A stretch of DNA of 64,000 bases from Thiosocius teredinicola (GTDB lineage Bacteria > Pseudomonadota > Gammaproteobacteria > Chromatiales > Chromatiaceae): contig NZ_CP019936.1 in NCBI RefSeq assembly GCF_002009425.1, forward strand, positions 1,721,297 through 1,785,296. The letters run 5' to 3'. Made by a program: the position numbers and the translations under genes. Below, in pieces: positions 10,805 to 36,077 of this stretch; position 1 is the stretch's first letter; each line of letters begins with the position of its first letter. The notes under the pieces are model-generated. The model made no database searches and was not told the DNA's origin. It saw nothing but the letters and a program-made list of their open reading frames with translations.

Positions 10805-10828
10805 GTGCTGTTCAGACAATCCAAATAT

Positions 10829-10855
10829 TTGTATAGACAAATGTTGTCTATACAA
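10829..10855. promoter_or_regulatory. tandem inverted HutC/GntR-type operator (TTGTATAGACAA atg TTGTCTATACAA), a candidate PhnF binding site in the phnF/phnG divergent promoter
   Basis: Two 12-mers that are reverse complements of each other. Each contains the GT-N-TA-N-AC core (GTCTATAC) typical of HutC-subfamily operators. A third copy lies upstream of phnC. Confidence 0.7.
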
Positions 10856-10918
10856 TTACGCTGCCACGGTGACTTCCGCAAGGACGTTTCGGTGAATTTT
10901 TTTTGACAGACGAGGCGT

Positions 10919-11650: not shown

Positions 11651-11705
11651 CGTGCACGTCCGGTTAAACGGGCGCATCGCGGGGTCGGTCGAGTTCCCAA
11701 GAGAT

Positions 11706-12869: not shown

Positions 12870-12872
12870 CGG

Positions 12873-13679: not shown

Positions 13680-13766
13680 AGCGATGTTATGGACGTTGGC
13701 GGGTGGCCTCCCCGGCCGGAAGCCGGGGAGGTGCCGCGCGCAGGGGTGCGCACGGCCAGGGGCGTC

Positions 13767-14798: not shown

Positions 14799-14840
14799 GA
14801 TTCTATGCTCCAGGTGAATGTGGGCCGGGTTTCAATTGCA

Positions 14841-15707
14841 CTAACTGGCAGAGGCGTAGACGACGTCGGTGTCGAACGCGTCGTCGTAGTCGTCATCGTC
14901 GGCGGTGTTCTTGCGGGTGCCGAGGATGAGTTCTTCGCTGTCTTCTCCGTACAGCTCGGTGAGAAATTCGGGGGTCAAGGCCTCGCTGGTGCCGTCATAG
15001 ACGACTTCGCCGTCGCGCATCGCCAGTGTTCGCGGGCAGTAGTGGATTGCATACGACACTTGATGCAACGACACGATGACGCTGATGTCCGCTTGGTTGA
15101 TCGCGGCCAGCGCCTTCATCACGCGTTTTGAGGACGCGGGATCGAGTGAGGCGATCGGTTCGTCAGCCAGAATGAGTTGGGCACGTTGTACCAGGGTGCG
15201 CGCGATCGCGACGCGCTGCTGTTGGCCGCCCGACAGTGTCGATGCGCGCTGATCGGCAAAGCGTGCCATGCCGACCTGGTCGAGCGCTTCCATGGCGGCA
15301 AGTTTCTCGGTTTTGTTGAACCACCCGAGCGAGCCCCGGTTTACCGGAATCCGACCCAGCAGCCCGAGACAGACATTGGTAAGCACAGAGAGGCGCTCTA
15401 TCAGATTGAATTGCTGGAATATGAAGCTGGTGTCGGCGCGCTGATGTCGTTTGCCGCGACGGATACGACCATTTCGCTGCACGGTTCGCCCGTTGACCTC
15501 GACAATGCCGGCGCCGTTCTTCGCGTCTCCAGCGGCAAGGCCGGCGACGTGACGTAGCAGGGTGGATTTGCCCGAGCCCGACGCCCCGATCAAAGCGACC
15601 ATTTCGCCACGTGCGATATCCAGGTTGATATTCTTCAGTGCGGTCTGCGCGCTTGATCCCCGGCCGAACGTTTTGTTCAGCTGCTGAATGCTGATTGCTT
15701 TGGACAT
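14841..15707 (-). CDS. phnC: phosphonate ABC transporter ATP-binding protein PhnC (acidic C-terminal tail)
   Basis: ABC ATPase [25 protein letters not shown] and ILADEP. First gene of the phnCDE operon. Confidence 0.9.
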
Positions 15708-22637: not shown

Positions 22638-25136
22638 ATGCCGGCAGGCATGCCCGGTGCAAGTGGCGGCAACAAGAACAAGGAGGGCGAAAGCGCGCTC
22701 ATGGCCACGGCGGCTCACGAATTGACAGCGTTCGAAGAAGCAAGGGCCCTGGCTCGCCGTCGTCGATTGCGCCTGTGGTTTCCGATTGGCGTTGTGGTGG
22801 TCATGCTGGTTGCGCTGGTCGGGATCGCCATATTCGACTACAGGACCATGCGCGCCGACACCCTGGCATTGTCCAAGGGCGTGATCGTCAATCTGCAAAG
22901 CCGGATCGAGACCGAAGTCGTCGCCTATATCGAGCCCATCGGCGACACCATCCGCCTGTCGCGCGATCTCTTGTCTGACAAGACCCTGTCCGATGTCCGC
23001 CGCGACCTCGTCGAGCCCTTGGGCATCGGCGTGTTGAACAACATGCCGCAGCTCACGAGCCTGATCATCGGCGTGCCGAACGGCGAGTTCTTCATGGTGC
23101 GTCGCTATCAGGACGACAAGCAGCAACAGCGTGGGCTCGAGGTCAAGACCATCAGCAAAGCCAGCGAGGCCGATGGCAAGCCCGTCGTGCGCCTGGTAAG
23201 GCGTGATGCTGCCGGCAAAGTGATTTCAGATCAGGTTGTCGAGTGGGACGGGTACGATCCCCGTCAGCGTCCGTGGTATCAGGGGGTAAGCCATGAGGAA
23301 GCCGACCGCCTGTTCTGGACCGACGTCTATCCGTTCTTCACCGACCGCGCCGCCGGCATTACGGGTTCGCTGCCGTTTATCAACGAGGCGGGCGAACTGG
23401 CGGCCGTGATAGGTGCCGACGTCAAGCTCGAAAGCCTGAGTCGTTTCTTGAGCGACCTCAAAATCGGCACCACAGGCTTTGCGTTCATTGTCGACAAAAC
23501 CGATCGCGTTATCGCCCACCCCAGTGCCGAATTGGTCAAGGAGACGGAGGCCGGTGAGGTGCGTTTGACGCGCGTCGCCGATCTTGCCGATCCGATTGCA
23601 CGACGCGCCTACGACCGTTTCCGGGTAGAAGGCCACGGCCGGCGCGATTTTGAATTGAACGATCGCCGCTACATCAGTTCGGTATCTTCACTGAAGCACC
23701 TGATCGACCGGGACTGGTCGGTGATCGTGGTGGTGCCGGAGGATGACTTCATTGGGTTTGTCGTCGAGAACGTCGGCAAGACGCTGGCGATGGGTTTGTC
23801 GGTCATGCTGCTGGCGGCCTTCCTCGCCGCCTTGTTGATTCGCCAGGGATTGCGTACCGACCGCGAGGCCATCCGTATTCTCGAACGTGAAGCGCAGCTC
23901 GATGCGCAGAGTGAGGCATTCGGCAGCACCGCCGTGCAGTCGGCGATTTTCGACTCGGGCGACGAGAACTCGTTGGCGCCGGTCACCGAAGCGGTGGCGC
24001 GTTCGTCGCGAGTCCGGCGTGCCAGCGTGTGGCAGTTCGACAGCGCTCATGACGAACTGCGTTGTCTCGACTGTTTCGACCAAGAGGCAGAAGGACACAC
24101 CCACGGCAATGCCTTGCGCCGCCCGGACCACCAGGCGTTGTTCGATGCAATCGAGCAGGGCGTGACATTGCGCGAGCTCGATACATCGAATGCGGCGGCA
24201 ACGACCTCTGTGTACAGCCGCTACCTCGACCCGATGGGTTGCCGGGCCTTGTTGTCGGCACCGGTCAAGGTAAGGGGCGAGGTGATCGGTGCGCTGTGGC
24301 TGGAGGATACCGGCAGGCGTGAACGCTGGTCGGACCAGGTGGCGCAATTTGCGCTGGCAATGGCCAACCTGTTGGCCATTCGGCAGGCGACGAGCGGCGC
24401 GACCGTGTCGGACAGCCAGCGTGACATGGCATCACCCGTCGAGAAGCGGCAAGGCGGCGCGCTGCCGGCTGCGGCGAAAGCCAGGCGTGACGAGGCGGTC
24501 GACATCGAAACCAGCCTGGGGGCGCAGCGTGCGGCAGCCTTTACCGCGAGACTTGCCCAGCTCGCCGGCGAGCAGCGCGCGGCGAGCGCCGAGGTTATCG
24601 ACGAGTTGGCGGTATTGTCACTGCACTTCACCGATGCCGTCGTGCTGGCCGAGCCGTTCGGCAAATCCAGCGACGAGTCTGTCGTCACCTACCTGATCCG
24701 CGAACTCGAGCGCGCCGCCGCCGATCACGACTTGGCCTATATGAAGTTTCTCTCCGATCAAGTGATGGCAGCGGCGGATCCCAACGATGATCCCAGGACC
24801 GGCGCGGCGAAGCTGGCCGATTTTGCGCTGCAGGTGCAGACGGTGTGCGAACGATTGTTCACCGAGCAGCAGTCACCGCTGGCGTTCTGTATCGGTCTTG
24901 ATCTCGGTCCGGTGATCGGGAGCGTCGTAGGTCGCGAGCAGCGCGCGTTCAACCTGTGGGGGGAGGCCGCGCAGATGGCGACAGACATGGCGCTGACCGG
25001 GCTGCCCGGCAGCATTCAGGCAACCGAAACGGTCTACCGGGCCTTGTCGGACGACTATCTGTTCCAACTCCGCGGGCGCCACTATCTGGAAAATATCGGT
25101 GAATTTTCCACGTACCTGATGAGTGGCCGGCTGTGA
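22638..25136 (+). CDS. membrane sensor with periplasmic Cache-like domain, cytoplasmic GAF domain and a C-terminal class-III nucleotidyl-cyclase homology domain (adenylate/guanylate cyclase-like; catalytic residues appear substituted)
   Basis: Two TM helices flank a ~300-aa periplasmic region. A GAF-like block follows (ASVWQFDS..EVIGALWLED). The C-terminal CHD pattern HFTDAV..IGLDLGPVIGSVVG..FNLWGEAAQMATDMA resembles the WGDTVNxASRMES motif, but N becomes Q and R becomes D. Confidence 0.7.
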   Translation: MPAGMPGASGGNKNKEGESALMATAAHELTAFEEARALARRRRLRLWFPIGVVVVMLVALVGIAIFDYRTMRADTLALSKGVIVNLQSRIETEVVAYIEPIGDTIRLSRDLLSDKTLSDVRRDLVEPLGIGVLNNMPQLTSLIIGVPNGEFFMVRRYQDDKQQQRGLEVKTISKASEADGKPVVRLVRRDAAGKVISDQVVEWDGYDPRQRPWYQGVSHEEADRLFWTDVYPFFTDRAAGITGSLPFINEAGELAAVIGADVKLESLSRFLSDLKIGTTGFAFIVDKTDRVIAHPSAELVKETEAGEVRLTRVADLADPIARRAYDRFRVEGHGRRDFELNDRRYISSVSSLKHLIDRDWSVIVVVPEDDFIGFVVENVGKTLAMGLSVMLLAAFLAALLIRQGLRTDREAIRILEREAQLDAQSEAFGSTAVQSAIFDSGDENSLAPVTEAVARSSRVRRASVWQFDSAHDELRCLDCFDQEAEGHTHGNALRRPDHQALFDAIEQGVTLRELDTSNAAATTSVYSRYLDPMGCRALLSAPVKVRGEVIGALWLEDTGRRERWSDQVAQFALAMANLLAIRQATSGATVSDSQRDMASPVEKRQGGALPAAAKARRDEAVDIETSLGAQRAAAFTARLAQLAGEQRAASAEVIDELAVLSLHFTDAVVLAEPFGKSSDESVVTYLIRELERAAADHDLAYMKFLSDQVMAAADPNDDPRTGAAKLADFALQVQTVCERLFTEQQSPLAFCIGLDLGPVIGSVVGREQRAFNLWGEAAQMATDMALTGLPGSIQATETVYRALSDDYLFQLRGRHYLENIGEFSTYLMSGRL

Positions 25137-25972
25137 AGCTGCGCGAGGCAAACACGGTTGCCGTGAACACTGGCGATACATTGCCGGCTTTGGGGCTACT
25201 TGCTCGATTGGGCGAGCGGGTACTACGCGTCATTCGCGCCGTCTTGATGTTCGTCGGCGATGCCTCGGTGGCGCTGGCCCGCGGTTTCGTACCGGGGCGC
25301 TGGCGGCGCACGATGCGCGAGGAGCTGTTCACCTATTTCTACCACGTCGGGGTGCGTGCCGTGCCTGCCGTGGTTGTCGCCGCGCTGTTGGTCGGCATCG
25401 GGCTGGTCCAGCAGATCCTGTATTGGCTCGACGTCGCCGGGCAACAGGGAAGCGTCGGTTCATTTCTCGTTCTGGTGCTGGTGCGTGAGATTTCGCCCGT
25501 GGTCACGGCGCTGATCGTCATCGGGCGCAGCGGATCGGTGCTGCTCGACGAAGTGGGACACATGAAAGTGAATGGGCAACTGCGCATGTTGCAGTCGGTC
25601 GGCCTCGACCCGGTCGATCTCATTGCGATACCGCGTTGCTTTGCCATGTCCCTGGCAGTCTGCGTGCTGACGATCATCTTTCTGTATGCAGCGCTGTGGT
25701 CGGGCTACCTGATGGCGTCGTTGACCGGCCTGACGTCGATCTCGCTGCTGAGCTTCGTCGATAGCGTATTGAGCGGCATGACCATCGGCGATCACCTGTT
25801 GTTGGTAATCAAGCCGTTGGTTACCGGCTACGTCATTGCGTATATCGCCGTCTGGTTCGGTATGCGCGTGGAGGCCAATGCGCTGGCGGTGCGTCGCATG
25901 TTGCCGCGTGGTTTCGTTTATTCCCTGATCGCGACGTTCTTGATCGGGGCAACGGTTTCGGCGGTGTTGTAG
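25133..25972 (+). CDS. MlaE/YrbE-family ABC transporter permease
   Basis: Topology and size match MlaE-like permeases. Start overlaps the upstream stop (ATGA). Confidence 0.75.
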   Translation: MKLREANTVAVNTGDTLPALGLLARLGERVLRVIRAVLMFVGDASVALARGFVPGRWRRTMREELFTYFYHVGVRAVPAVVVAALLVGIGLVQQILYWLDVAGQQGSVGSFLVLVLVREISPVVTALIVIGRSGSVLLDEVGHMKVNGQLRMLQSVGLDPVDLIAIPRCFAMSLAVCVLTIIFLYAALWSGYLMASLTGLTSISLLSFVDSVLSGMTIGDHLLLVIKPLVTGYVIAYIAVWFGMRVEANALAVRRMLPRGFVYSLIATFLIGATVSAVL

Positions 25973-26686
25973 ATGCTTGCACCAATGACTCATCACAACA
26001 CGGTGCCGCGCCTGCAGGCACATGGCGTCAGGGTGGCCGCATCCGGCACCTGGCCGGCACTGTCGTTCGATCTGAATGTTGCGCCGGGCGAACTGCATCT
26101 GCTGCGTTCGCTCGACGTCGAGCGTTCGACGGCGCTCGTGGACATTCTGCTCGGGCTTGAACAACCGCAAGCCGGCGATGTGCGCTTTGACGGACAGGCC
26201 TGGCGTGAAATGTCTGAAAGTGACGCGTTTCGCGTGCGCGGCCAGGTTGGTCGGGTGATGAACCGCGGTAACTGGTTACGCTCGCGCACGGTCATGGACA
26301 ATCTCTTGCTGCCATTGCGGCACCACACAGTGCTGCCGGACGATCTGCTGCGTGAAATGGCGTGTGACCTGGCGCGCCATTTCGGTCTGCCCGGCCTGCC
26401 GATGTTGCCGCCAGACGATTGTCCCGCCAGCGATCTCGAACGCGCGGCGTGCGTCAAAGCTTTTCTGGGACGACCGCAGCTGGTGTTTCTCGAGCACCCC
26501 ATGGAGTATGCCGACATCGGCCTGCTGCCGCCGTTGATGGCGGCGGTGCAACAGGTGCGCCGCCGTGGCGGGGCCGTGGTCTGGTTCACGCGCAATCGGG
26601 CCGTGCTTGAACAGCGCAGCATCCCCGCCGATCGTCGCTATCACATCGTCGGCGGGCATCTACTTGACCTGGAGCGAAGCGAGTGA
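25973..26686 (+). CDS. degenerate ABC ATPase-like protein (MlaF-like fold lacking Walker A, signature, Walker B and H-loop residues)
   Basis: Where GxxGxGKST is expected it reads LLRSLDVERSTAL. Where Walker B is expected it reads LVFLEHPM instead of hhhhDEPT. The signature region reads ASDLERAA. Confidence 0.65.
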   Translation: MLAPMTHHNTVPRLQAHGVRVAASGTWPALSFDLNVAPGELHLLRSLDVERSTALVDILLGLEQPQAGDVRFDGQAWREMSESDAFRVRGQVGRVMNRGNWLRSRTVMDNLLLPLRHHTVLPDDLLREMACDLARHFGLPGLPMLPPDDCPASDLERAACVKAFLGRPQLVFLEHPMEYADIGLLPPLMAAVQQVRRRGGAVVWFTRNRAVLEQRSIPADRRYHIVGGHLLDLERSE

Positions 26687-27738
26687 CCGATATCAAACGC
26701 TATCGTCGGGAGCGTACCTTCCTGGGCGCGACAGTGCTGATAGCGCTGGTGCTGTTCCTGTTCACCTTGATCAAGGCCGATGCGCTGCGCGAGTTGTTCG
26801 ACCCCGGCGAACCGCTGCGCCTGGTGCTGCCTGATGAGGGGCTTTACGGCCTGACCGAAGGGGCGAAGATCGAGGTGCTGGGAACCGAGGCGGGCAAGAT
26901 CCAACGCATCGTGATCGAGCCGGACCAGAAGATTCATGCGATGGCGCGCTTGAGCGCTTCGATGGTGCCATTCGTTCGGGGAGATTCTGAAGCCATCATC
27001 CGCAAGACCTTCGGTGTCGCTGGCGACAGTTATGTCGAGATTACCCGCGGCACCGGCGAGCCGATGGATTGGGAATACGCCGTATTGACGGCGAGGCCGG
27101 ACCGGGCGCCGACCGACAGTATCGGCGAGATCATGGAAGACGTGCGTAGCAGGGTCATCCCAATTCTGGAGCAGACCGAGCGCACCATGACGGCGTTGGC
27201 CGATCTGACGGAGCGACTTGCCGATCCAGAAGGCGATCTACAGGGGGTGCTGGCCGACATCAACGCAGTCACCGGACGCATCGAGCGCGGTGAGGGCACC
27301 TTGGGCAGCCTGTTGAGCGACGAGGGCACCGCCAAAGAACTCGAGGCACTGTTGCTCAGCGCCAACAAGGCGGTCGACCAACTCGGTCCGATCCTCGAGG
27401 AGCTACAGAAAACCGCGCAACAGGTCACGTCCTTGTCGCGTTCGATCAATGCGCAGAGCAAGGATCTGCCGGAGATCAGTGCCAGCGTGAAGTCGGTCAT
27501 GGCATCGCTCGATGTCGTTATGGCCGACCTGAAAAAGACCTCGCCGGAGCTACCTAAGATCACGCGTGACATCAGCGCGTCCACGGCGAACATCCCGGTA
27601 CTGCTTGGTATGACCCAGCAGACCTTGTCGGAACTGGAAGGCTTGCTGCGTCAACTGCGCAACAGCTGGCTGATCGGTGGAAGTGGCGCGCCGCCTCCGG
27701 AGGGTGGTCGCTTGCCTCCGAGCGAGGTGCGGCCATGA
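26683..27738 (+). CDS. MlaD/MCE-domain protein (single N-terminal TM, MCE domain, long helical C-terminal region)
   Basis: TM LGATVLIALVLFLFTLI, then MCE-like RLVLPDEGLYGLTEGAKIEVLGTEAGKI. Coiled-coil-like C-terminus. Confidence 0.75.
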   Translation: MTDIKRYRRERTFLGATVLIALVLFLFTLIKADALRELFDPGEPLRLVLPDEGLYGLTEGAKIEVLGTEAGKIQRIVIEPDQKIHAMARLSASMVPFVRGDSEAIIRKTFGVAGDSYVEITRGTGEPMDWEYAVLTARPDRAPTDSIGEIMEDVRSRVIPILEQTERTMTALADLTERLADPEGDLQGVLADINAVTGRIERGEGTLGSLLSDEGTAKELEALLLSANKAVDQLGPILEELQKTAQQVTSLSRSINAQSKDLPEISASVKSVMASLDVVMADLKKTSPELPKITRDISASTANIPVLLGMTQQTLSELEGLLRQLRNSWLIGGSGAPPPEGGRLPPSEVRP

Positions 27739-28646
27739 ATGTTGTCCGCATGGTGATCGGCGCCGCGGTGTGCGCAACCTTACTGGCCGCATGCGGCGGC
27801 TCTGCCGAGAAACCCGAGACACCGCCGACCGAGCAACAGTCGCTCGACCGTTCTGCGCGCCTGGCCTTTGCGCAGGGTAGGTACGATCAGGCCGCAAGCC
27901 TGTACGAAGCGGCGTTGCTCGCCGCATTGAAGGAAGACGCACCGCAGGCAATCGTCGATGCCCGCTTCAACCTCGCACTTTGTCAAACCTACCAGGGGCA
28001 ATACGCCGAGGCGCTCGATCAACTCGAACAGGCTGAGGCGGAAAGGCTGCGTCGCGGTGTTGTCGGTGAAGGCAGTATCGAGCTGCTGCGTGGCACGATC
28101 CATTACCGAAGCGGTCAACTCGATAAGGCGCGCTTGGTGCTACAGACGCTGTTGGTCGGTGACAACGGTAGCGCCGCGACGGCGACAAAGGCGCACTTCG
28201 TGCTCGGATTGATCGCCGCGGATCAGGGCGATATCAAGGACTTGAGCACGCATCTCAACGCCATCGGCGCGGACGCCGTGCAGGCGTCGGCGACCGACCG
28301 GTTGGAACTTACGGCATTGCTCAGCGCCTTGCAGGGCGAGGCCGATCAGGCCCTGGCCCAGCTCGAACAGGTTGCGCGTTTGCGTCGGGACGAGCGCGAT
28401 TACAGGGGGATGGTGCGCGTGCTGGCGAAAGCCGGCGACGTGGCCGAGCATGCGCAACGTATTCAGTCGGCGGGGCGTTATCTGCTACGAGCCGGGCGCA
28501 GCGCCGCGCAACGCCGCGAGCCGGAAACACGTGGCTGGCTGGAGCGTGCTGAACAGCTGGCTTCGCGGGCGGGCGATACTGAAACGGCGCGTGAGGCCCG
28601 CGAACTGTTGAATGGCTTGGAAGACAAGGCGGCGACGAGCCGCTGA
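27735..28646 (+). CDS. TPR-repeat lipoprotein
   Basis: Lipobox LLAAC after the signal peptide. Repeated YxxAxxxYxxAL-type helical repeats. ATGA overlap with the upstream MCE gene. Confidence 0.7.
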   Translation: MNVVRMVIGAAVCATLLAACGGSAEKPETPPTEQQSLDRSARLAFAQGRYDQAASLYEAALLAALKEDAPQAIVDARFNLALCQTYQGQYAEALDQLEQAEAERLRRGVVGEGSIELLRGTIHYRSGQLDKARLVLQTLLVGDNGSAATATKAHFVLGLIAADQGDIKDLSTHLNAIGADAVQASATDRLELTALLSALQGEADQALAQLEQVARLRRDERDYRGMVRVLAKAGDVAEHAQRIQSAGRYLLRAGRSAAQRREPETRGWLERAEQLASRAGDTETAREARELLNGLEDKAATSR

Positions 28647-28664
28647 ACAGGCCGATCGGTCGAG

Positions 28665-29126
28665 CTACCGGCGGCCCGCATCCGATGTTTTCATCCGATG
28701 TTGAATATCTGCGATCAATTCATCGGTCGCGACTGCGTACCATTCGGGCACTATCGTGAATTGGCTGCGTTCTCCAAGAAGCACACGCACCGGTTCGCTG
28801 GTGATCATAATCCGTGGCTTACTCGAGTCGGTAGCCAGTTCGACGGCCGTGATCTTCGAATAGGGTATCTGTGCCGTTGGCGATCCCAAGGGCTCGCGAA
28901 TCTTCAACGTGTCTGGCCCCAGGTCCAACCCGGGCAAGAGCCAGACTTTTGCGACCTGGAATACAAAGCCTGACACCACCATAGCGATAACTGCACCAGT
29001 GACAAACGTGGTGGCGTTCAGATCGAAGAAGCTGAATACGAACCCCAGCAGTCCGGCAAAGCCTGCCATCAGAATGAGGTCGATCAGCCTTGCCGGCCAG
29101 GTGAATGCAATTTTCTTGTTATTCAT
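28665..29126 (-). CDS. small membrane protein with two TM helices and a PH-like cytoplasmic domain (hypothetical)
   Basis: ORF 153 aa. Hydrophobic helices LIDLILMAGFAGLLGFVFSFF and AVIAMVVSGFVF. Confidence 0.55.
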   Translation of the reverse strand: MNNKKIAFTWPARLIDLILMAGFAGLLGFVFSFFDLNATTFVTGAVIAMVVSGFVFQVAKVWLLPGLDLGPDTLKIREPLGSPTAQIPYSKITAVELATDSSKPRIMITSEPVRVLLGERSQFTIVPEWYAVATDELIADIQHRMKTSDAGRR

Positions 29127-29208
29127 GCCGTCGACCCGTTGTCGAAGTTGTAGGGGTGGCCGGTAAGCTTGGATCGATCGGCAGCCTAACCAATGCCGGA
29201 CTGCCTCG

Positions 29209-29829
29209 CTAGTGTGAAATCAAGGTGCGTGCAATGCCGACCAATTGGCGGCGCTGCTTGTCGTCCATGTCCGAATAGATCGTCATCAGTTCGCGCAGTT
29301 CGTCGGGAAACGAGGCGCACAGGCCATCCGACTCGATATGTTGTTCGTCCAGCCACGTTCGCGGTTTGTCGCCGGCTTTCTCTATCTTGCGCGCCAGGCG
29401 ATCGCCGATATGCTTGAAGGGGTTATCGATGTGCTCGATGACCGTCGACGGTTTGAGATGCAGATCGGCGATGAAGGCCGCGGTGGCGTCCTGCGAGGTG
29501 TCGGCGGCCATCTGGTACAGATAGACGAGATTTTGATGACGCACTGCCTGCAGGTCGCGTTCGCCGGATCGAATCGGCCCGAGGCCAAACATGATCCAGC
29601 AAACAGAGGTGCCGGTGAGCTTGGCGATTGTTGTGACATCGTTGGGGTGGGGCATGGAGTAACCTGCCTCGTACCACGACAGCCTGTTCTCCGGCCATTT
29701 CGGCAACTTGCGTTTGAACTCCTTCGCCGATTTGAAGCCGGCCATCTTGCGTGCCTGCGCGATACGTTTGCCGATCTTTATGGCAAGAGGATCTTTGGTG
29801 CGCGAAGGGGATGAATGAATTTTTGTCAT
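29209..29829 (-). CDS. XRE-family helix-turn-helix transcriptional regulator (phage-repressor-like)
   Basis: HTH segment IGKRIAQARKMAGFKSAKEFKRKL...DVTTIAKLTGTSVCWIMFG. Start at the internal ATG (MTKIHSS). Sits at the edge of the tRNA islet. Confidence 0.65.
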   Translation of the reverse strand: MTKIHSSPSRTKDPLAIKIGKRIAQARKMAGFKSAKEFKRKLPKWPENRLSWYEAGYSMPHPNDVTTIAKLTGTSVCWIMFGLGPIRSGERDLQAVRHQNLVYLYQMAADTSQDATAAFIADLHLKPSTVIEHIDNPFKHIGDRLARKIEKAGDKPRTWLDEQHIESDGLCASFPDELRELMTIYSDMDDKQRRQLVGIARTLISH

Positions 29830-29926
29830 ATGCAAAAAAAGTTCTTGCAAAGTAAGTTTTGCCAATTATACTTTGCGCCATTCCAGCGGGGTATGCCCGC
29901 GATAACTTTTTTTACTGGAGTTGAAC

Positions 29927-30079
29927 GTGCGTTTTCTGAACGAGCCAAGAACACAAGCCGAACGCGATGTGCGGTCAGTACTGACCGTCGCGGGCAGTCT
30001 GTGCTCGTTTGCGGTCCGGGGTGTCGACGGGTTTGTTGGCACGCTTGGCGACAAGCAACTGAAGATTGGTATGAATTGA
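29927..30079 (+). CDS. small hypothetical ORF (50 aa, GTG start with GGAG Shine-Dalgarno), divergent from the XRE gene and ending before a strong terminator
   Basis: ggag-N8-GTG. Translation MRFLNEPRTQAERDVRSVLTVAGSLCSFAVRGVDGFVGTLGDKQLKIGMN. No homology recognised. Confidence 0.3.
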   Translation: MRFLNEPRTQAERDVRSVLTVAGSLCSFAVRGVDGFVGTLGDKQLKIGMN

Positions 30080-30135
30080 CGCACTGCGATTGAAGGATCG
30101 GAGGCGTCGAGATGGATTGACGCCTTCCGGAAAGA

Positions 30136-30167
30136 ACCCCGGTAGGTGATGAACCCCGGGGTTTTTT
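30136..30167 (+). terminator. rho-independent terminator (ccccgg...ccgggg followed by T7), preceded by a second 9-bp hairpin
   Basis: aaccccggtaggtgatgaaccccggggttttttt. An upstream hairpin ggaggcgtc...gacgcctcc sits at ~30099-30127. Confidence 0.7.
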
Positions 30168-30195
30168 TGTGCCCGGTGGTTGGGAATTGAACAAC

Positions 30196-30432
30196 AGGTC
30201 GCTGGTGTAACGGTTAGCACATCGGCCGGTCAGGAAAGCGTTGGTGATTCTGGGCAGATTGAGAAGTGTTCGAAACAGACTGAATCAAGGCGCGAATCGC
30301 GCGTAATAGCGAGCTATTGCGAAGATTCGTAACGCTTAGTCGGTTTGTTTCGAGCGCTTGGCAACTGACCACGAATTGCCAACGCTTTCCTCAAGCCGAA
30401 AGGTACAGGTTCGAATCCTGTGCGACCTACCA
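30196..30432 (+). tRNA. tRNA-Asp(GUC)-like gene interrupted in the anticodon loop by a 158-bp insertion (putative disrupted or unusually processed tRNA)
   Basis: 5' half: acceptor aggtcgc, D-arm gtgt-aacggtta-gcac, anticodon stem tcggc. 3' half ~165 nt downstream: gccga, variable aaggt, T-arm acagg-ttcgaat-cctgt, acceptor gcgacct, then a + cca. All four stems are fully complementary. Removing the insert and one TCA copy restores a 7-nt loop cggtcaa with anticodon GUC. Confidence 0.6.
30233..30390. mobile_element. 158-bp MITE-like insertion with 12-bp perfect terminal inverted repeats (GGAAAGCGTTGG...CCAACGCTTTCC) flanked by a 3-bp TCA direct repeat, inserted in the tRNA anticodon loop
   Basis: The TIRs are exact reverse complements. 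TCA is duplicated on both flanks. The interior contains a 7-bp hairpin (ttggcaa...ttgccaa). No coding capacity. Confidence 0.55.
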
Positions 30433-30436
30433 GACT

Positions 30437-30513
30437 GCGCTCATGGCCAAATGGATGAAGGCACCCGGTTGCGAACTGGGAGATTCCGGGTTCGAGTCCT
30501 GGTGAGCGCGCCA
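30437..30513 (+). tRNA. 77-nt cloverleaf tRNA with anticodon GCG (Arg-decoding) but a Ser/Leu-type D-arm (3-bp GCC/GGC stem, 11-nt loop) and a short variable loop; a non-canonical tRNA
   Basis: Acceptor gcgctca/tgagcgc, then g and an encoded CCA. Anticodon arm cccgg-ttGCGaa-ctggg with U33 and A37. T-arm ccggg-ttcgagt-cctgg. Flanked by a 10-bp inverted repeat cagactgcgc/gcgcagtctg. Confidence 0.6.
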
Positions 30514-30569
30514 AGTCGCGCAGTCTGCAGAGGCGGACTGCTTGTTCAACGTGAGAAAGGAGGTGTGCC

Positions 30570-30647
30570 ATGCCACGCATCAAATGGGACGACGAACGTT
30601 GGGAAGACCGGGCCAATAGCTTTCGAAAAGATGTCGAAGCGGAGTAA
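30570..30647 (+). CDS. 25-aa small ORF with a perfect AAGGAGG Shine-Dalgarno ([25 protein letters not shown])
   Basis: gagaaaggaggtgtgccATG. The ORF terminates with TAA, overlapping the next ORF start. Confidence 0.4.
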
Positions 30648-30825
30648 GGGTTATCCGTCGGAAACAAACGTGAAGCGCGGAGAACGCATCGTAAACAAAG
30701 ACAAGGAACTGCTGGAAAAATTGGGTCGGAACGATCCGTGCCCGTGCGGCTCGGGCCGTAGGTTTCAAGCAGTGCTGCCTCGAAAGGAAGTCCTTTCGAC
30801 AGCAGTGATCGCAAGGATTACGTAA
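30631..30825 (+). pseudogene. SEC-C-motif (YchJ/SecA C-terminal zinc-binding motif) small protein gene with an apparent +1 frameshift inside the metal-binding motif
   Basis: Translation reaches ...[21 protein letters not shown], then reads QAVLP... A 1-nt shift after ttt-c restores [13 protein letters not shown]-stop, matching the consensus CPCGSGKKFKKCC. Confidence 0.5.
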
Positions 30826-30854
30826 GAGATTGAAGGGCGGGTCGTATTGGCGCT

Positions 30855-30885
30855 GCTGTCCTTCAAATGAACTCCCTCGAAGCGG
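30855..30885 (+). repeat. tRNA-like acceptor/T-arm minihelix element (ccctcga-a-gcgg-ttcgact-ccgc-tcggggg)
   Basis: A 7-bp stem stacked on a 4-bp stem with a T-loop-like ttcgact loop. A related copy lies at 31096-31130. Confidence 0.4.
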
Positions 30886-31015
30886 TTCGACTCCGCTCGG
30901 GGGAACAAGGTCCTCATCAGGACGTTGCGTGACCGTGGTTGGGCTTCAGAACGCCCGCCGGCGCCGCCTGCACTGCAGTCCGGTGTACCGCACGCAATGG
31001 TCGATGGAGACTCCA

Positions 31016-31089
31016 CTGGATATAGCTCAGTTGGGTAGAGCAATCGCCTTACACGCGATCAGTCAGAGGTTCGAATCCTCTTATCTAGA
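31016..31089 (+). tRNA. tRNA-Val(UAC)
   Basis: Acceptor ctggata/tatctag (one G-U pair), D-arm gctc-agttgggta-gagc, anticodon arm atcgc-ctTACac-gcgat, T-arm agagg-ttcgaat-cctct, discriminator A. CCA is not encoded. Confidence 0.8.
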
Positions 31090-31095
31090 CCTGGA

Positions 31096-31130
31096 AAGGG
31101 CGAGAGCCCCGCGGTTCGATTCCGCTTACA
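31096..31130 (+). other. tRNA 3'-half-like fragment (hairpin gggc-gaga-gccc plus T-arm-like gcgg-ttcgatt-ccgc), related to the element at 30855-30885
   Basis: Contains a T-loop consensus ttcgatt but no matching 5' acceptor or D-arm. An inverted repeat ccgcgat...atcgcgg lies further downstream. Confidence 0.4.
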
Positions 31131-31429
31131 CCCGAGGCAAGGCCCCGGTGAGTTCCGCGATCGTGTATCGCGGATGTCGTCTCACAGCATGCTGGATGCC
31201 TGCGTGACGCCGAGCCGGTAACGGCCAGTGCGCTTCCCATCGCGATGGATGGTCAGACCAGGGACGGTCAGCCAGACAAAACGACCGGAAGCGCACCCGC
31301 TGCTATCGATCGATGTCACCCGCACCGTGCATGTGGGGCCGAGCCTTTTCGAAGCGCATCTTCGGGTGCGCTTCGCAAAGGCGAACGGAAGTTCACGAGG
31401 AATGCACTAACGATAACAAGGAGAAGAAA

Positions 31430-32572
31430 ATGATGATGTTCAAGCATTTTGTGGTCGCTCAGCACGAACGCGCCTTGCTGTACCGTGACCGTCAGTTGGT
31501 CGCCGTGCTTGCACCGGGCGTACACCGCTACTTCGACCCGACCGGTCGGATTTCGGCAACTGTGTTCGACCTGTCGCAGACCGAATTCGCGGATGCCAAC
31601 GCGGACCTGTTGATGAAGACCTCGGGCGACTTGCTCGACGGTTACCTGATGCAGGTCTTGATGGGTGATCACGAGGTCGGCCTGGTGTACCGCGACGACA
31701 CCTTCGTTACGGCATTGGCGCCGGGCGAGCGCAAGGTGTTCTGGAAGTTGCCGCACCAGTTGCGTGTTGAACGCGTTGCGGTCGACACCGAGCTGCAGGT
31801 GGCCAAGCAATTGGTCGATGCGATTGTGCGTACCAAAGGTGGCGTCGTGTCGCGTGCATTGATGCCGTTCGTCTACAGCGCCGAAGTGGCGGACAACCAG
31901 GTTGGCCTGTTGTTTGTCGACGGTGAGATGGCACAGGCATTGAAGCCGGGTTATTACGTGTACTGGGCGGTCAAACGCCGTGTGGTGGTTGAGCCGTACG
32001 ATACCCGTATCCAGGCCATGGAAGTGCAGGGCCAGGAGATCCTGACCCGCGACAAGGTGTCGCTGCGGGTGAACCTCGGTGCACAGTACCGTGTGGCCGA
32101 TGCGGTGAAGGCACGCGCTGATCTGCAACAGCCGATCGAATGGCTGTACCGTGAACTGCAGTTTGCGTTGCGCCAGGCGGTGGGTTCGCGCGATCTCGAC
32201 AAACTGTTGGAAGACAAGGAACGTGTCGACCACGAAGTGTTCGAGAAGGTGGTGGCCACGGCTGCAGAGCACGGTTTCGATCTGCGTAGCGTGGGTATCC
32301 GCGACGTCATCCTGCCGGGTGACATGAAGGATATCCTGAACCAGGTCGTGCAGGCCGAAAAAGCCGCTCAGGCGAACGTCATCAAGCGACGTGAAGAAAC
32401 GGCAGCGACCCGTTCGCTGTTGAACACGGCAAAGCTGATGGACGAGAACCCGACCTTGCTGCGCCTGAAAGAGTTGGAAACGCTCGAGAAGGTGACCGAG
32501 AAGGTCGATCGCCTGACCGTGTTTGGTGGTCTCGACGGCGTGTTGAAAGACACGGTCAAGATCAATGTTTAA
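31430..32572 (+). CDS. SPFH/band-7 (stomatin/flotillin-like) domain protein without a predicted TM, with a C-terminal coiled coil
   Basis: Start at the internal ATG MMMFKHF with an AAGGAGAAG Shine-Dalgarno. SPFH-like core VSLRVNLGAQYRVADAV. C-terminal Glu/Lys/Leu-rich helices. Confidence 0.7.
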   Translation: MMMFKHFVVAQHERALLYRDRQLVAVLAPGVHRYFDPTGRISATVFDLSQTEFADANADLLMKTSGDLLDGYLMQVLMGDHEVGLVYRDDTFVTALAPGERKVFWKLPHQLRVERVAVDTELQVAKQLVDAIVRTKGGVVSRALMPFVYSAEVADNQVGLLFVDGEMAQALKPGYYVYWAVKRRVVVEPYDTRIQAMEVQGQEILTRDKVSLRVNLGAQYRVADAVKARADLQQPIEWLYRELQFALRQAVGSRDLDKLLEDKERVDHEVFEKVVATAAEHGFDLRSVGIRDVILPGDMKDILNQVVQAEKAAQANVIKRREETAATRSLLNTAKLMDENPTLLRLKELETLEKVTEKVDRLTVFGGLDGVLKDTVKINV

Positions 32573-32653
32573 CGTTAACCCGCCCGGTCGTTGTGGTTCG
32601 CCACACGCCGGGCACAAACTCAATGGAAGACAACAGGACGAGGGAGAAGAACG

Positions 32654-33853
32654 ATGCCTGTTAAACATACCCTGAACAAGGGCAAGGTGCCGGTACATAT
32701 CTGGACCGAGGATGCCGAGTCGCAGGCGATGACGCAGTTGGCGAACATCGCGCAGCTGCCGTTCGTGCATCACCACGTGGCGGCGATGCCGGATGTGCAT
32801 GCGGGTATCGGTGCAACCGTCGGTTCGGTGATCCCGACCAAAGGCGCGATCGTGCCGGCGGCCGTTGGTGTGGATATCGGCTGCGGCATGAACGCGCTGC
32901 GTACCTCGCTGAAGGCCGAAGACCTGCCGGAGAGCCTGCGTCGCGTGCGAAACGCGGTCGAGGCGGCAATCCCGGTCGGCTTTGATATGCATAAGAACGA
33001 TCCGGTGAAGCGATCGACCATCACGCCGATGGCCAAAGGCCTGGACGTGATCATCGACAAGCATCCGGCGCTTGCGCGTATGCAGAAGAAGCGTCCGTAC
33101 GATGTCTGGGTGCGTCAACTGGCGACACTCGGCGGCGGCAACCACTTTATCGAGCTGTGCCTGGACGAGGTGGGTGATGTCTGGATCATGTTGCACTCCG
33201 GTTCACGTGGAATCGGCAACATCATCGGGCGCTACTTCATCAACCTGGCGCGACACGATATGGGTGACCAGCTGGGCCGACTGCCCGACAAAGATCTGGC
33301 GTACTTCACCGAGGGTGCGAAGCACTTCGAGGACTATGTCGAGGCGGTGCATTGGGCGCAGGACTACGCGATGGTCAACCGTCGGGAAATGATGCGCTCG
33401 ATCATCTCGGCACTGGAGAAGTATCTGCCGCCGTTCACGATCACCAAAGAGGCGATCAACTGCCACCATAACTATGTGGCACGTGAAACCCACTTCGGTG
33501 CCGACGTGTACGTAACGCGCAAAGGTGCGATCCGGGCCGGCGAAGGTGAGCTGGGCATCATCCCGGGCTCGATGGGCGCCAAGTCGTACATCGTGCGCGG
33601 TAAAGGCAATGCCGAGTCGTTCTGCTCGTGTTCGCACGGCGCGGGCCGACGCATGTCGCGTAGCAAGGCGAAGAAGCAGTTCAGCCAGACGGACCTGGAA
33701 CACCAGACCGAGGGTGTTGAATGTCGCAAAGACAGCGGGGTGATCGACGAGATCCCCGGTGCCTATAAAGACATCGACGTGGTAATGGCGAACCAGACCG
33801 ACCTGGTTGAAGTGGTACACACACTGAAACAGGTGCTGTGTGTGAAAGGCTGA
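32654..33853 (+). CDS. rtcB: RNA-splicing ligase RtcB (3'-phosphate/5'-hydroxyl nucleic acid ligase)
   Basis: Conserved motifs MPDVHAGIGATVGSV, GGGNHFIEL, HSGSRGIGN, NCHHNY and SHGAGR. Start at the internal ATG with a GGAGAAG Shine-Dalgarno. Confidence 0.9.
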   Translation: MPVKHTLNKGKVPVHIWTEDAESQAMTQLANIAQLPFVHHHVAAMPDVHAGIGATVGSVIPTKGAIVPAAVGVDIGCGMNALRTSLKAEDLPESLRRVRNAVEAAIPVGFDMHKNDPVKRSTITPMAKGLDVIIDKHPALARMQKKRPYDVWVRQLATLGGGNHFIELCLDEVGDVWIMLHSGSRGIGNIIGRYFINLARHDMGDQLGRLPDKDLAYFTEGAKHFEDYVEAVHWAQDYAMVNRREMMRSIISALEKYLPPFTITKEAINCHHNYVARETHFGADVYVTRKGAIRAGEGELGIIPGSMGAKSYIVRGKGNAESFCSCSHGAGRRMSRSKAKKQFSQTDLEHQTEGVECRKDSGVIDEIPGAYKDIDVVMANQTDLVEVVHTLKQVLCVKG

Positions 33854-33854
33854 G

Positions 33855-33881
33855 TGGGCCGGGGCTTCGGCCCACTCTTTT
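33855..33881 (+). terminator. rho-independent terminator after rtcB
   Basis: gtgggccggggcttcggcccac followed by tcttttt. Confidence 0.75.
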
Positions 33882-33894
33882 TACGAAACCAGTA

Positions 33895-34110
33895 ATGGAA
33901 GCAAAAGCAATGGCGAACAAGACCAACAAGGCAAGAAACCTGTTGCACAACCACCCGATGATGAAGAAGGGTGGCGTGCATCAGAAATCGAACAAGGCAC
34001 AACGTAAAAAGGAGAAAATGGCGCTGCGCAAGGCGTGGTTTTCTCCGAGTGCAGCCATGTCGGCTGTATTCGGAGAAGACCGTGCACGCATTGACATGGT
34101 TCATTGTTAA
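33895..34110 (+). CDS. small highly basic hypothetical protein (71 aa)
   Basis: ORF within listed 33838..34110, after the terminator. Lys/Arg-rich (KARNLLHNHPMMKKGGVHQKSNKAQRKKEKMALRKAW). Lower-GC region. Confidence 0.35.
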   Translation: MEAKAMANKTNKARNLLHNHPMMKKGGVHQKSNKAQRKKEKMALRKAWFSPSAAMSAVFGEDRARIDMVHC

Positions 34111-34223
34111 TTGGGGTTAGTTCTGTTCAGGCGATCGTTGCTCAATCAGTTAGACTCGATATTGTTGCTGCTGATGGAGTCGTGGTACCGTTTCGCGCCA
34201 ATGACTAGCAATGGAGATGCAGC

Positions 34224-34589
34224 ATGCCATGGCAATACAGTCAGAGTACTGGAGTACTCACAAGGGATGGGCGCGTAGTCGGAACCGGCTATTCGGGAGC
34301 AGCTGGCGTTGGGCGAAACAATCCAGATGCCGAGCGACTGACTGACGTGGGTCCGATACCGCGAGGTCAGTATCGAATTGGGGCTCAATATTCGCATCAG
34401 TCGAAAGGGCCCGTTACTATGGCGTTAAATCCCGTCAATCACTCAGCGCATGGTCGAATGCATTTTCTCATTCACGGAGACAGTATCCGGAATCCCGGCA
34501 ATGCTTCTCAAGGTTGTATTATTCTTCGGCGTGATATCCGAGAACGTATTGCCAACAGCGGTGATGCAGTTTTGGAGATTGTGAGATGA
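34224..34589 (+). CDS. Tlde1-like/DUF2778-type L,D-transpeptidase-fold toxin domain protein
   Basis: The motif HFLIHGDSIRNPGNASQGCIIL matches the His...Ser-x-Gly-Cys catalytic signature of YkuD/Tlde1 L,D-transpeptidase domains. Low-GC islet. GGAG Shine-Dalgarno. Confidence 0.6.
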   Translation: MPWQYSQSTGVLTRDGRVVGTGYSGAAGVGRNNPDAERLTDVGPIPRGQYRIGAQYSHQSKGPVTMALNPVNHSAHGRMHFLIHGDSIRNPGNASQGCIILRRDIRERIANSGDAVLEIVR

Positions 34590-34942
34590 CCCGTTTGTCT
34601 ATAGCGATCGTGGTGCTGACACTGTTTTCTAGTCCAGCGGTCGCCGACCCGGATTGTACTAGCCCCGATGCTTGGCCGGCCGGTATGGCGTTCACGCATC
34701 TGAAGAACGCGGGGTTGGTGACCAACTACAACTTGGATTTCGATAAAACGACCGTAACCCGATTGGCATCGGAAAGAGTGGGTGACGACCTCTATCGCCA
34801 GATTCACAGAGTGTCGTTTGTGAGAAAGTCTGGAGCAAAACTCGAAGCAATTACCGTCAATGATGCGTCGAATGAAGAGTGTTCCATGTCGGGCGTCGAC
34901 GTTTATGTCATCGAGAAGATGCTAGGCGACTTCAGCTCATAA
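34586..34942 (+). CDS. periplasmic immunity-like protein (signal peptide), translationally coupled to the upstream toxin-like gene
   Basis: ATGA overlap with the upstream gene. Signal peptide MTRLSIAIVVLTLFSSPAVA. Small soluble domain. Same low-GC islet. Confidence 0.55.
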   Translation: MTRLSIAIVVLTLFSSPAVADPDCTSPDAWPAGMAFTHLKNAGLVTNYNLDFDKTTVTRLASERVGDDLYRQIHRVSFVRKSGAKLEAITVNDASNEECSMSGVDVYVIEKMLGDFSS

Positions 34943-35090
34943 AGTCTTATCGTCATGGGATCTAGGTCTTGAGCCGGATACCCGATGCCAGAGGTGAAGT
35001 CGCCAAGCGCGGCCTACAATGACTACGCCTTTGCGCAGAATATGTCAGACGCCCAAGGCGTCGATTCAGTCGATCTCATCGTAAATTCAC

Positions 35091-36077
35091 CTAATTCTTG
35101 GCTCTAGCCGAGGACCTCCGTTTCGTCGAGGCGGCCGCGTGCGATCCGCCTTGCTGCACCGCCTTGCCGGTCCTCGCTTGCCCGGCAACCAAGGCGGGCA
35201 CAGCTTTCTCTATGTGCGTAAGGAACTCGATCATCGTATCAGACAGAGTTTTACCTCGCTTCCAGATCCACTCATAGGCGAACACTGCAGGTTCATTGTT
35301 GGAAAGGAGCAAGGGACGCGCGCTCGTATTGTTGGCTGACAATTTGCTCGTCGGCAATATGCCTGCACCGATACCGATCGACGTCCATTCTTCAATGACC
35401 TTATAGGTGAGTGCTTGTCCTGGATAGGGTGAGAACTTACAACGCTCGCTGGCAAACATTCGCTCGACCGCGTCGTTCAACCCGCAGCCGCCACCAGTCA
35501 AGATGATCGGCGCTGTAGGCAATTCAGAGATAGGCAGTGGGCCGGCTTGTTGGTCACTCTCGTCTGCTGCCGGTAGATAGCGGAGCTCGTCTCTATAGAA
35601 CGCCATAGAGTTTTCTTCGGCGGCGAGTTCGCGTGCAACAACAACTTGTATATCGATTTGCGTGGCATGTAGACGGGACGACAATTCGTCGACAAAACAC
35701 TCTTTGAAATACACATGAACATCCGGATGCCGTTGTCTGAACGGTTGTATTGCCTGGTTCAAGCGTTGCATGTCGACCAGCGGCGAAAACCCGATGCGCA
35801 ACATTTTGTGCGTCGGGTTCAGATACTGCTCCGCTGCTTCCAGCAAGTCGTCGCGGCTTTGTGCGACGCGCTGCATGTACGGCAGCAGGGTCTGGCCGAA
35901 GGGAGTGATTTCGACTTTGCGTGTCGTACGGGTGAACAACCGCCCGCCGAGTTCTTCTTCGAGCTGCGAGATCGCGTTCGACAGCGTGGGTTGGGTGGCG
36001 AAAGCGAGTTCCGCGGCACGACTGAACGACCCGGTTTGAGCGACCAGCAGGGCAAACTGCAGTTGTTTTAGGTTCAT
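35091..36077 (-). CDS. LysR-family transcriptional regulator
   Basis: N-terminal HTH MNLKQLQFALLVAQTGSFSRAAELAFATQPTLSNAISQLEEELGGRLF. LysR substrate-binding-like C-terminus. Confidence 0.85.
   Translation of the reverse strand: MNLKQLQFALLVAQTGSFSRAAELAFATQPTLSNAISQLEEELGGRLFTRTTRKVEITPFGQTLLPYMQRVAQSRDDLLEAAEQYLNPTHKMLRIGFSPLVDMQRLNQAIQPFRQRHPDVHVYFKECFVDELSSRLHATQIDIQVVVARELAAEENSMAFYRDELRYLPAADESDQQAGPLPISELPTAPIILTGGGCGLNDAVERMFASERCKFSPYPGQALTYKVIEEWTSIGIGAGILPTSKLSANNTSARPLLLSNNEPAVFAYEWIWKRGKTLSDTMIEFLTHIEKAVPALVAGQARTGKAVQQGGSHAAASTKRRSSARAKN

Follow-up and report, generated by a model that had tools for sequence, protein, structure and literature searches.

In Gram-negative bacteria, it is still debated how phospholipids get from one membrane to the other and what drives and steers this traffic. 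The MlaFEDB complex, described in Escherichia coli, Pseudomonas aeruginosa and Acinetobacter baumannii, exchanges phospholipids spontaneously in both directions without ATP, and ATP merely biases the direction (10.1101/2021.05.25.445566). In Brucella, the MpcEFDA system has a needle protein of 331 amino acids (aa) with a single MCE domain and a lipoprotein of the outer membrane; its components pull down together as a stable trans-envelope complex, which was modelled at about 310 Å (PMC12436622). Here we describe a five-gene operon of Thiosocius teredinicola, located at 22638-28646 of a window of 64,000 nucleotides (nt) (contig NZ_CP019936.1, positions 1,721,297 to 1,785,296). T. teredinicola is a sulfur-oxidising gammaproteobacterial symbiont of the giant shipworm. 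The operon encodes a membrane sensor, an MlaE-family permease, an ABC-fold protein that we call psF, an MCE protein and a tetratricopeptide repeat (TPR) lipoprotein (Table 1). MpcEFDA is the closest described system and has the same E-F-D-lipoprotein gene order. Three features are new: the MlaE permease is paired with a pseudo-nucleotide-binding domain that is degenerate throughout its family, a Cache-GAF-pseudo-cyclase subunit is dedicated to the system, and the operon ends with a TPR rather than a PqiC-like lipoprotein. Full-text literature searches found no description of the five-gene module, in agreement with an earlier interpretation of the same DNA (the sequence-only reading), which had not recognised it as a described system.

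The five open reading frames (ORFs) are all on the plus strand, and each junction overlaps or abuts. The sensor and permease genes share a 4-nt GTGA overlap (25133-25136), the TAG stop codon of the permease gene is followed by the ATG of psF with zero gap (25972/25973), psF and the MCE gene overlap by GTGA (26683-26686), and the MCE and TPR genes overlap by ATGA (27735-27738). The tightly linked five-gene unit of the sequence-only reading, with the sensor stop overlapping the MlaE start, is thereby borne out, and the overlaps suggest that the five genes are co-transcribed. The unit is delimited by its neighbours, because a class II-type ribonucleotide reductase gene ends upstream at 22556 and a convergent gene ends downstream at 28665. 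A consensus scan, which had low power and gave matches at or below the shuffle expectation, found no strong promoter or terminator inside the operon; two overlapping weak terminator-like matches lie within the sensor gene at 23812-23831. The start of the sensor is ambiguous between the ATG at 22638 (832 aa), M5 at 22650 (828 aa, as in RefSeq) and M22 at 22701 (811 aa, as in other gene calls). Most homologue alignments begin at residues 5-24 of the sensor, most commonly at residue 22, and the sequence AAGGAGG is present at 22680-22686, 14 nt upstream of the ATG at 22701. The RefSeq product names are generic (cache domain-containing protein, MlaE family ABC transporter permease, P-loop NTPase family protein, MlaD family protein and tetratricopeptide repeat protein), and none attaches a named system to the genes. 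In UniRef psF is a hypothetical protein, and the MCE protein is identical to RefSeq WP_078119243.1.

The closest solved-structure matches of psF are MlaF of P. aeruginosa (6e-13) and MlaF of E. coli (8e-13). In the alignment to MlaF, the Walker A motif GPSGIGKT is replaced by SLDVERST, with K47 of MlaF aligned to S52 of psF. The Q-loop Gln is replaced by N97, the signature LSGGM by CPASD, the Walker B Asp and the catalytic Glu by E174 and H175, and the H-loop His by N208. The ABC_tran profile (PF00005) gave psF 18.4 bits, which is under the cut-off of 25, whereas the PhnC- and PhnK-type ATPases of the same window, used as controls, scored 113.7 and 107.3 bits. Because five defining motifs were tested and psF has none of them, psF is not a functional ABC ATPase. 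In E. coli, the K47A and E170Q variants of MlaF fail to complement an mlaF deletion and both residues are essential (PMC7367683); they correspond to Ser and His in psF. The loss of the nucleotide-binding signatures claimed by the sequence-only reading was thus found again by profile and structural alignment to MlaF. Its H-loop assignment was correct in that the His is absent, but the His aligns with N208, and the Arg that had been named as its replacement sits one residue before.

The fold of psF is that of a complete nucleotide-binding domain. The AlphaFold2 model (pLDDT 87.4, pTM 0.86) contains both the RecA-like and the helical subdomain, and a Foldseek search with it gave TM scores of 0.78-0.81 to the nucleotide-binding domains of FtsE, MlaF, LolD, YbbA and MacB. 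An origin from another ABC subfamily was considered, as FtsE scores equally in NCBIfam. However, the solved-structure matches, the PLR(E/H)HTxLP motif common to psF and MlaF, and the adjacency of the MlaE gene favour MlaF ancestry. The protein stops at residue 237 and has no counterpart of the C-terminal 'handshake' extension of MlaF (about 25 aa).

The loss of the motifs is a family-wide property of psF and is not peculiar to the T. teredinicola genome. A word-indexed search with psF gave 43 clusters, followed by a sharp drop to generic ABC proteins, and an exhaustive profile search of 1.84 billion representatives gave 266 clusters at E<=1e-30 and 1185 at E<=1e-10. Column statistics were calculated from the best 150 cluster representatives, with a family mean of 1.94 bits per column. 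None of these representatives (0/150) has GK[ST] in Walker A, the columns of which reach 0.62-0.88 bits. The signature-Gly and H-loop columns are poorly conserved (0.66-1.2 bits together, 0.8-1.2 bits for the H-loop), as are those of the D-loop (0.6-1.0 bits), and the Q-loop column varies across the family alignments. The catalytic Glu position is variable (R in 34, E in 22 and H in 20 representatives; 0.87 bits), and the Walker B Asp position holds a conserved Glu in 127/148 representatives (3.41 bits). Positions of the scaffold and the helical subdomain (G61, G68, W77, R89, W101, H117/H118, P143, R162 and W204) reach 3.4-4.3 bits. The ATP site thus evolves near-neutrally while the remainder of the protein is under strong purifying selection, which is the signature of a pseudoenzyme retained for its structure. 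The family can be regarded as a natural experiment, in which a widespread and conserved Mla/MCE-type system has discarded ATP hydrolysis and kept the ABC scaffold, showing the role of the scaffold without the motor.

Decaying pseudogenes, or motif losses created by aligning by eye, would be a trivial explanation, to which only the motif loss itself lends any weight, and we consider it almost inconceivable. The profile and structural alignments concur with the first by-eye alignment, and pseudogene decay is ruled out by the intact frames, the 34-100% identity over about a hundred loci and the strongly conserved scaffold columns.

The five genes also occur together far beyond T. teredinicola. 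Eight relatives were looked up, five by psF and three by the MCE protein (43-47% identity), and all eight had the same five genes in the same order with different flanking genes. Nine loci were found in 185,579 species-representative genomes, all of them metagenome-assembled genomes (MAGs), from Chromatiaceae, Burkholderiales, Burkholderiaceae, Candidatus Accumulibacter regalis and Candidatus Accumulibacter meliphilus. In metagenomes, the pattern RAAC[VI][RK]AFL picked out 311 relatives, and 80 of these were taken for analysis. Gene order was counted over 99 loci, each component being scored only where the flanking DNA suffices; some of these loci are near-duplicates, so the counts are not independent. 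MlaE is directly upstream of psF in 70/70 loci with room, the MCE gene is downstream of psF in 83/83, and the TPR gene follows in 47/48. A cyclase domain is encoded upstream of MlaE in 56/56 loci, which bears out the pairing of a cyclase-domain sensor with a pseudo-MlaF that the sequence-only reading had proposed to survey. The co-occurrence of the five genes is therefore near-obligate, and the order persists in loci where psF identity is as low as 34%. Conservation is highest for the MCE protein, with 57-77% identity in closer relatives and about 35-49% in the distant tier; among closer relatives, the identity of psF and of the sensor is about 50-55%. Overall, the hosts are Chromatiaceae, Sedimenticolaceae, Burkholderiales and Accumulibacter, together with sediment and soil metagenomes; they include Candidatus Accumulibacter, a key organism of wastewater phosphorus removal, and sulfur-oxidising symbionts.

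A few loci depart from the common arrangement. In a soil-metagenome locus (L058, 2794-5225) and its close relative L055, the sensor starts at the second transmembrane (TM) segment and has no Cache domain, its cyclase part seems frameshifted, and the overlapping gene upstream encodes a winged-helix (Trans_reg_C) and TolB_N/FlgO-like protein. A link of the module to a DNA-binding output was considered for these two loci and rejected: with the sensor truncated N-terminally and frameshifted C-terminally, a disrupted copy or an assembly error is likelier. In the Burkholderiaceae MAG AOB1 (L016, 394-1218), a 274-aa ORF fuses psF residues 14-192 to the last 84 or so MCE residues and lacks the MCE barrel and most of the needle; it looks like an in-frame deletion or a mis-assembly.

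The position of psF bears on whether the transporter could be energised by an ATPase encoded elsewhere. In ABC transporters, the region after the Q-loop and the helical subdomain receives the coupling helix of the permease. The corresponding stretch of psF, right after the Q-loop and in the helical subdomain, is among the best conserved parts of the protein (W101, N110, H117/H118 and P143, 3.4-4.1 bits). Since a gene with a nucleotide-binding-domain fold directly follows MlaE in each locus, and since the expected permease-contact region is conserved, psF should occupy the ATPase site. A conventional ATP-driven MCE importer, in which an outside MlaF or other ABC ATPase displaces or pairs with psF and psF is only a regulator, would have a precedent in M. 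tuberculosis, where MceG serves both Mce1 and Mce4 (PMC9947336), and our survey of ABC ATPases covered the window, so the genome beyond may encode one. However, the mycobacterial mce operons have no ATPase-like gene, in contrast to the complete fold encoded after MlaE here, and the remaining ABC ATPases of the window belong to the phosphonate operon. In addition, pairing psF with MlaF would leave both composite sites defective, as neither Walker A nor the signature is present in psF. Energising in trans therefore seems very unlikely.

Within their own families, the permease and the MCE protein are unremarkable. MlaE matches PF02405 over profile positions 3-211 of 212 (144.2 bits, 5.5e-42), and the MCE protein matches MlaD PF02470 with 28.8 bits against a cut-off of 25.1. 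The latter has a TM segment at residues 12-30, a beta-barrel at about residues 43-139 (AlphaFold2 pLDDT about 80) and a tail of about 185 residues (approximately 147-330), which is all-helical by DSSP in a monomer model with a pLDDT of 40-55 for this part. Residues 211-327 match TIGR00996, an Mce model of actinobacteria, and PF28544 (Helical_needle) matches faintly in MCE relatives. Over 42 relatives, the tail (27121-27672) has invariant Pro or Gly at residues 160, 182, 203/205/208, 236, 263, 291 and 305, i.e., about every 22-28 residues; this spacing points to a needle assembled from segments or repeats, comparable to the repeat coiled coils of Brucella MpcD. The fifth protein matches TPR_2 (9.7e-11) and has a signal peptide and a lipobox, LLAAC, with Cys20 followed by Gly at +2, so that the outer membrane is its probable destination by the +2 rule. 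Its orthologues contribute 53 distinct N-termini, and 47 of these have a lipobox. Pfam searches revealed no PqiC-family match for the TPR lipoprotein and no MlaB/STAS domain in any of the five proteins.

Compared with MlaFEDB, the module has in common a full-length MlaE permease, a TM-anchored MCE protein and an MlaF-like partner with the nucleotide-binding-domain fold. It differs in that psF has neither ATP motifs nor the handshake, a STAS protein is missing, the MCE tail is about 185 residues long, and genes for a receptor and a TPR lipoprotein are added. No Mla-related Pfam family was found among the flanking genes examined, and no search aimed at MlaC or MlaA was made. The bridge-type systems, i.e., MpcEFDA of Brucella, Mce1 and Mce4 of M. 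tuberculosis and TGD1-3 of the chloroplast, resemble it in the operon order of permease, ATPase-like protein, MCE protein and, as the last gene, an outer-membrane lipoprotein, in having a single-MCE protein of about 330-350 aa with a long C-terminus, which in the module is predicted to be helical, and apparently in having no MlaC shuttle (PMC12436622). However, they contain an active ATPase (MpcF, MceG or TGD3) in place of psF and have no associated Cache-GAF-cyclase receptor; MpcE also has a STAS domain, and MpcA is PqiC-like. PqiABC and LetAB likewise place an MCE tunnel or needle across the periplasm without an ATP-hydrolysing subunit, and PqiC is an outer-membrane lipoprotein at the needle tip (PMC12436622 and established knowledge), but their inner-membrane partners are PqiA and LetA, their MCE proteins are multi-MCE, and they have no receptor subunit. 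By analogy, the module would be closest in its working to the bridge-type MCE systems (Mpc, Mce1 and TGD), and it has the absence of an ATPase in common with Pqi and Let. In its working it is probably unlike the known ATP-driven lipid transporters.

BceAB-BceS and FtsEX offer parallels: their ABC modules are coupled physically and genetically to a membrane sensor or periplasmic effector instead of serving classical import, and psF is structurally near the nucleotide-binding domains of FtsE and BceA. However, BceA and FtsE are active ATPases, and the Bce sensor is a histidine kinase with an enzymatic output, whereas no enzymatic output is evident here. The sequence-only reading had proposed that the operon is a signalling or structural system rather than an importer, and from the sequence we infer that this may be so.

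The sensor of the operon has hydrophobic segments at residues 48-66 (TM1) and 383-401 (TM2) and Pfam matches to dCache_1 (4e-19), GAF (1.4e-11) and Guanylate_cyc (3.1e-18). Its cyclase-homology domain scores 66.5 bits with PF00211, over the cut-off of 21.9, and its best solved-structure match is Cya of Mycobacterium intracellulare (4p2m, 2e-18). We compared the six canonical residues of class III cyclases, whose roles were taken from PMC4886424 and general knowledge, with Cya 4p2m and with 51 distinct relatives. The two metal-binding Asp (D666 and D707) and the substrate Lys (K703) are kept, although the assignment of D666 is less certain, as it lies beside a 3-residue insertion and N-terminal to the Pfam match. 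The substrate Asp is replaced by N772, the transition-state Asn by Q779 and the transition-state Arg by D783. Among the relatives, the first metal Asp is D in 45/51, the second is D in 42/51, and the substrate Lys is K in 38/51 and R in 9/51. The substrate Asp is D in 0/51 and N in 42/51, the transition-state Asn is N in 0/51 (R 31, Q 9, S 6), and the transition-state Arg is R in 1/51 (K 11, M 11, A 8 and others). Within the domain, the Arg column ranks at the 3rd percentile for conservation, whereas those of the metal Asp, Lys and Asn772 rank at the 65th-82nd, and the scaffold has 11 invariant positions. Further residues without a counterpart in Cya are invariant or nearly so in the family (Y701, C737, F741, F750, D755, G761, Y816 and E822) and may mark a ligand site or a new surface for interaction.

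The lysines of the KGKG motif, which bind the triphosphate, are lost as well. They are E and I in the C-terminus of the sensor, and Glu and Ile/Val/Leu in the close family (13 loci aligned). A missing Asn on its own does not prevent activity in some cyclases, e.g., Rv1900c (PMC4886424), and the stronger evidence for inactivity is therefore the loss of the Arg, its free drift and the lost lysines. Because the transition-state residues are not those of a cyclase, the sensor is not a canonical functional class III cyclase, and its homodimer should be inactive or nearly so. The substitutions at the catalytic Asn and Arg reported by the sequence-only reading were thus confirmed, with the canonical residues absent in 51/51 and 50/51 relatives, and alignment to profiles brought out neither an intact Walker or ABC motif in psF nor a transition-state Asn or Arg in the sensor. 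Its view that both cores are degenerate on intact folds holds for psF and for the cyclase fold, which is over the Pfam cut-off, but is too strong for the cyclase pocket, where the metal Asp and the Lys are kept.

The retained metal Asp and substrate Lys could be read as a sign that the sensor is an active, non-canonical cyclase and that the operon couples a cAMP/cGMP-producing receptor to the adjacent transporter; the dispensability of the Asn in enzymes such as Rv1900c (PMC4886424) and the Arg and Lys that many relatives have at the two transition-state positions fit with this. However, in the T. teredinicola sensor the Arg is changed to Asp, a reversal of charge, together with Asn to Gln; the Arg column is nearly the least conserved of the domain, and the KGKG lysines are replaced in all the aligned loci. 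We consider an active cyclase to be quite improbable.

In mammalian adenylyl cyclase, the C1 half gives the two metal Asp and the C2 half gives the Asn and Arg. The pocket of the sensor, which is only half degenerate, resembles the C1 half of such a heterodimeric cyclase. With the class III cyclases Rv1625c/Cya and mammalian C1, the domain has in common the cyclase-homology fold, both metal Asp and the adenine-specifying Lys; it differs in the changes of Asn to Gln, Arg to Asp and substrate Asp to Asn, in the lost KGKG lysines and in having no C2-like partner nearby. Signalling could accordingly run in reverse: the MCE protein, MlaE and psF would sense envelope lipid load or mechanical state, psF would relay it to the receptor, and the C1-like domain would pair with a C2-like partner encoded elsewhere to make cAMP or cGMP. 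The C1-type residues, kept without the C2-type Asn and Arg, would suit this, as would the cyclic-nucleotide-binding (cNMP_binding) genes that follow the module within 8 kb in two loci with no other relation to each other (L001, 16069-16518; L003, 16298-16708), which could be a coincidence or a hint of a cyclic-nucleotide link. However, no second cyclase-domain gene was found in or beside the loci examined, the metal Asp are not invariant in the relatives, unlike those of working cyclases, and the KGKG lysines are gone. Such reverse signalling is unlikely.

The reading that we favour, tentatively and with somewhat guarded confidence, is that of a bridge-type MCE conduit without an ATP motor of its own, in which psF is structural and the receptor is a regulatory or docking subunit. 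It starts from the gene anatomy, the domain folds, the loss of catalytic motifs, the purifying selection on the scaffolds and the conserved association of the five genes; from these we infer the stoichiometry, the bridge geometry, the cargo, the passive flow and the receptor-psF contact. The five proteins would form a single envelope-spanning complex. As in the homologous MlaFEDB and bridge-type systems, an MlaE dimer would lie in the inner membrane with a psF dimer capping its cytoplasmic side. A hexamer of the single-MCE protein would sit on MlaE, its long helical tails would make a periplasmic needle, and the needle tip would be taken up by the outer-membrane TPR lipoprotein. Since psF should be unable to bind or hydrolyse ATP, the complex would have no motor of its own, and psF would be retained as a structural partner required by MlaE. 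Lipid or another hydrophobic cargo could then exchange spontaneously, driven by equilibrium, through the MlaE pocket and the MCE tunnel; the ATP-free exchange by MlaFEDB suggests that a motorless version could still mediate equilibrium exchange.

In this conduit model, the dCache-GAF receptor would be the fifth subunit, with its dimeric, impaired cyclase domain acting as a docking or allosteric module and not as an enzyme. E. coli MlaF stays on its complex only with MlaB and its C-terminal extension, and forced dimerisation rescues the loss of the extension (PMC7367683). As the psF system has neither MlaB nor the extension, another dimeric partner is plausible, and the co-translated GAF-cyclase module is the obvious candidate. 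The receptor might hold or reposition the psF dimer, for which canonical Mla uses ATP, the MlaF handshake and MlaB, and this is the least supported step of the model. Ligands of the periplasmic Cache and cytoplasmic GAF domains could set whether the conduit is open. A fully receptor-driven version seems to us unlikely. In it, periplasmic and cytoplasmic ligands would make the pseudo-cyclase dimer clamp or release the psF dimer and so open or close the MlaE-MCE lipid tunnel that leads to the outer membrane; if true, this would be a ligand-gated inter-membrane lipid conduit made of two pseudoenzymes.

Several points weigh against the conduit model. The metal Asp and the Lys of the cyclase domain are retained at above-median conservation, so the domain may bind a ligand or work in a heterodimer. 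Some relatives could also retain weak activity, as judged from the R at the Asn position in 31 and the K at the Arg position in 11 of them. The MCE tail is modelled with low confidence in the monomer, and the length of the needle and a hydrophobic lumen are therefore tentative. A canonical MlaF or another cyclase-domain protein encoded elsewhere in the T. teredinicola genome might also act in trans. If the model of a motorless conduit is true, it would be a clear example from bacteria of two pseudoenzymes, a pseudo-ABC ATPase and a pseudo-cyclase, recruited to the same membrane complex, and it would tie a lipid conduit of the envelope directly to a Cache/GAF receptor. As T. teredinicola is available as a cultured isolate, the system should be open to experiment.

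Table 1. Features of the five-gene operon and its surroundings (positions in the window).
Feature	Position	Strand	Basis or remark
Sensor (TM1, periplasmic dCache, TM2, GAF, cyclase-homology domain), 832 aa	22638-25136	+	ORF, Pfam and hydrophobic segments
Sensor periplasmic region, residues 67-382	22836-23783	+	Contains dCache_1, Pfam match 204-365
Sensor GAF domain, cytoplasmic, residues 446-581	23973-24380	+	PF01590, 45.5 bits
Sensor cyclase-homology domain, residues 683-829	24684-25124	+	Pfam Guanylate_cyc
MlaE-family permease, 279 aa, GTG start	25133-25972	+	PF02405
psF, ABC-fold protein, 237 aa	25973-26686	+	Begins immediately after the MlaE stop
psF Walker A equivalent, residues 46-53, SLDVERST	26108-26131	+	No Gly-rich loop, no Lys
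psF Walker B equivalent, residues 170-175, LVFLEH	26480-26497	+	Alignment to MlaF
MCE protein, 351 aa: TM helix, one MCE beta-barrel, predicted helical tail	26683-27738	+	MlaD, TIGR00996, AlphaFold2
TPR lipoprotein, 303 aa	27735-28646	+	TPR_2; lipobox Cys20 at 27792-27794
PhnK-type ABC ATPase	6929-7714	-	Pfam
PhnJ	7711-8622	-	Pfam
PhnI	8619-9758	-	Pfam
Amidohydrolase	11706-12869	-	Pfam
ABC permease	12873-13679	-	Pfam
Phosphonate-binding protein	13767-14798	-	Pfam
PhnC-type ABC ATPase	14841-15707	-	Pfam
Two ORFs	28665-29126, 29209-29865	-	No Pfam match; in low-GC region
tRNA-Arg(gcg)	30437-30513		In low-GC region
tRNA-Val(tac)	31016-31091		In low-GC region
Band 7/SPFH gene	31313-32572		In low-GC region

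Elsewhere in the window, Pfam matches identified a phosphonate C-P lyase and uptake cluster on the minus strand at 3735-15707 (Table 1). On the other side of the operon, the GC content falls to 0.53-0.59 over 28000-36000, compared with about 0.62 in the flanks. This low-GC region may be an insertion beside the tRNA genes, immediately downstream of the operon.

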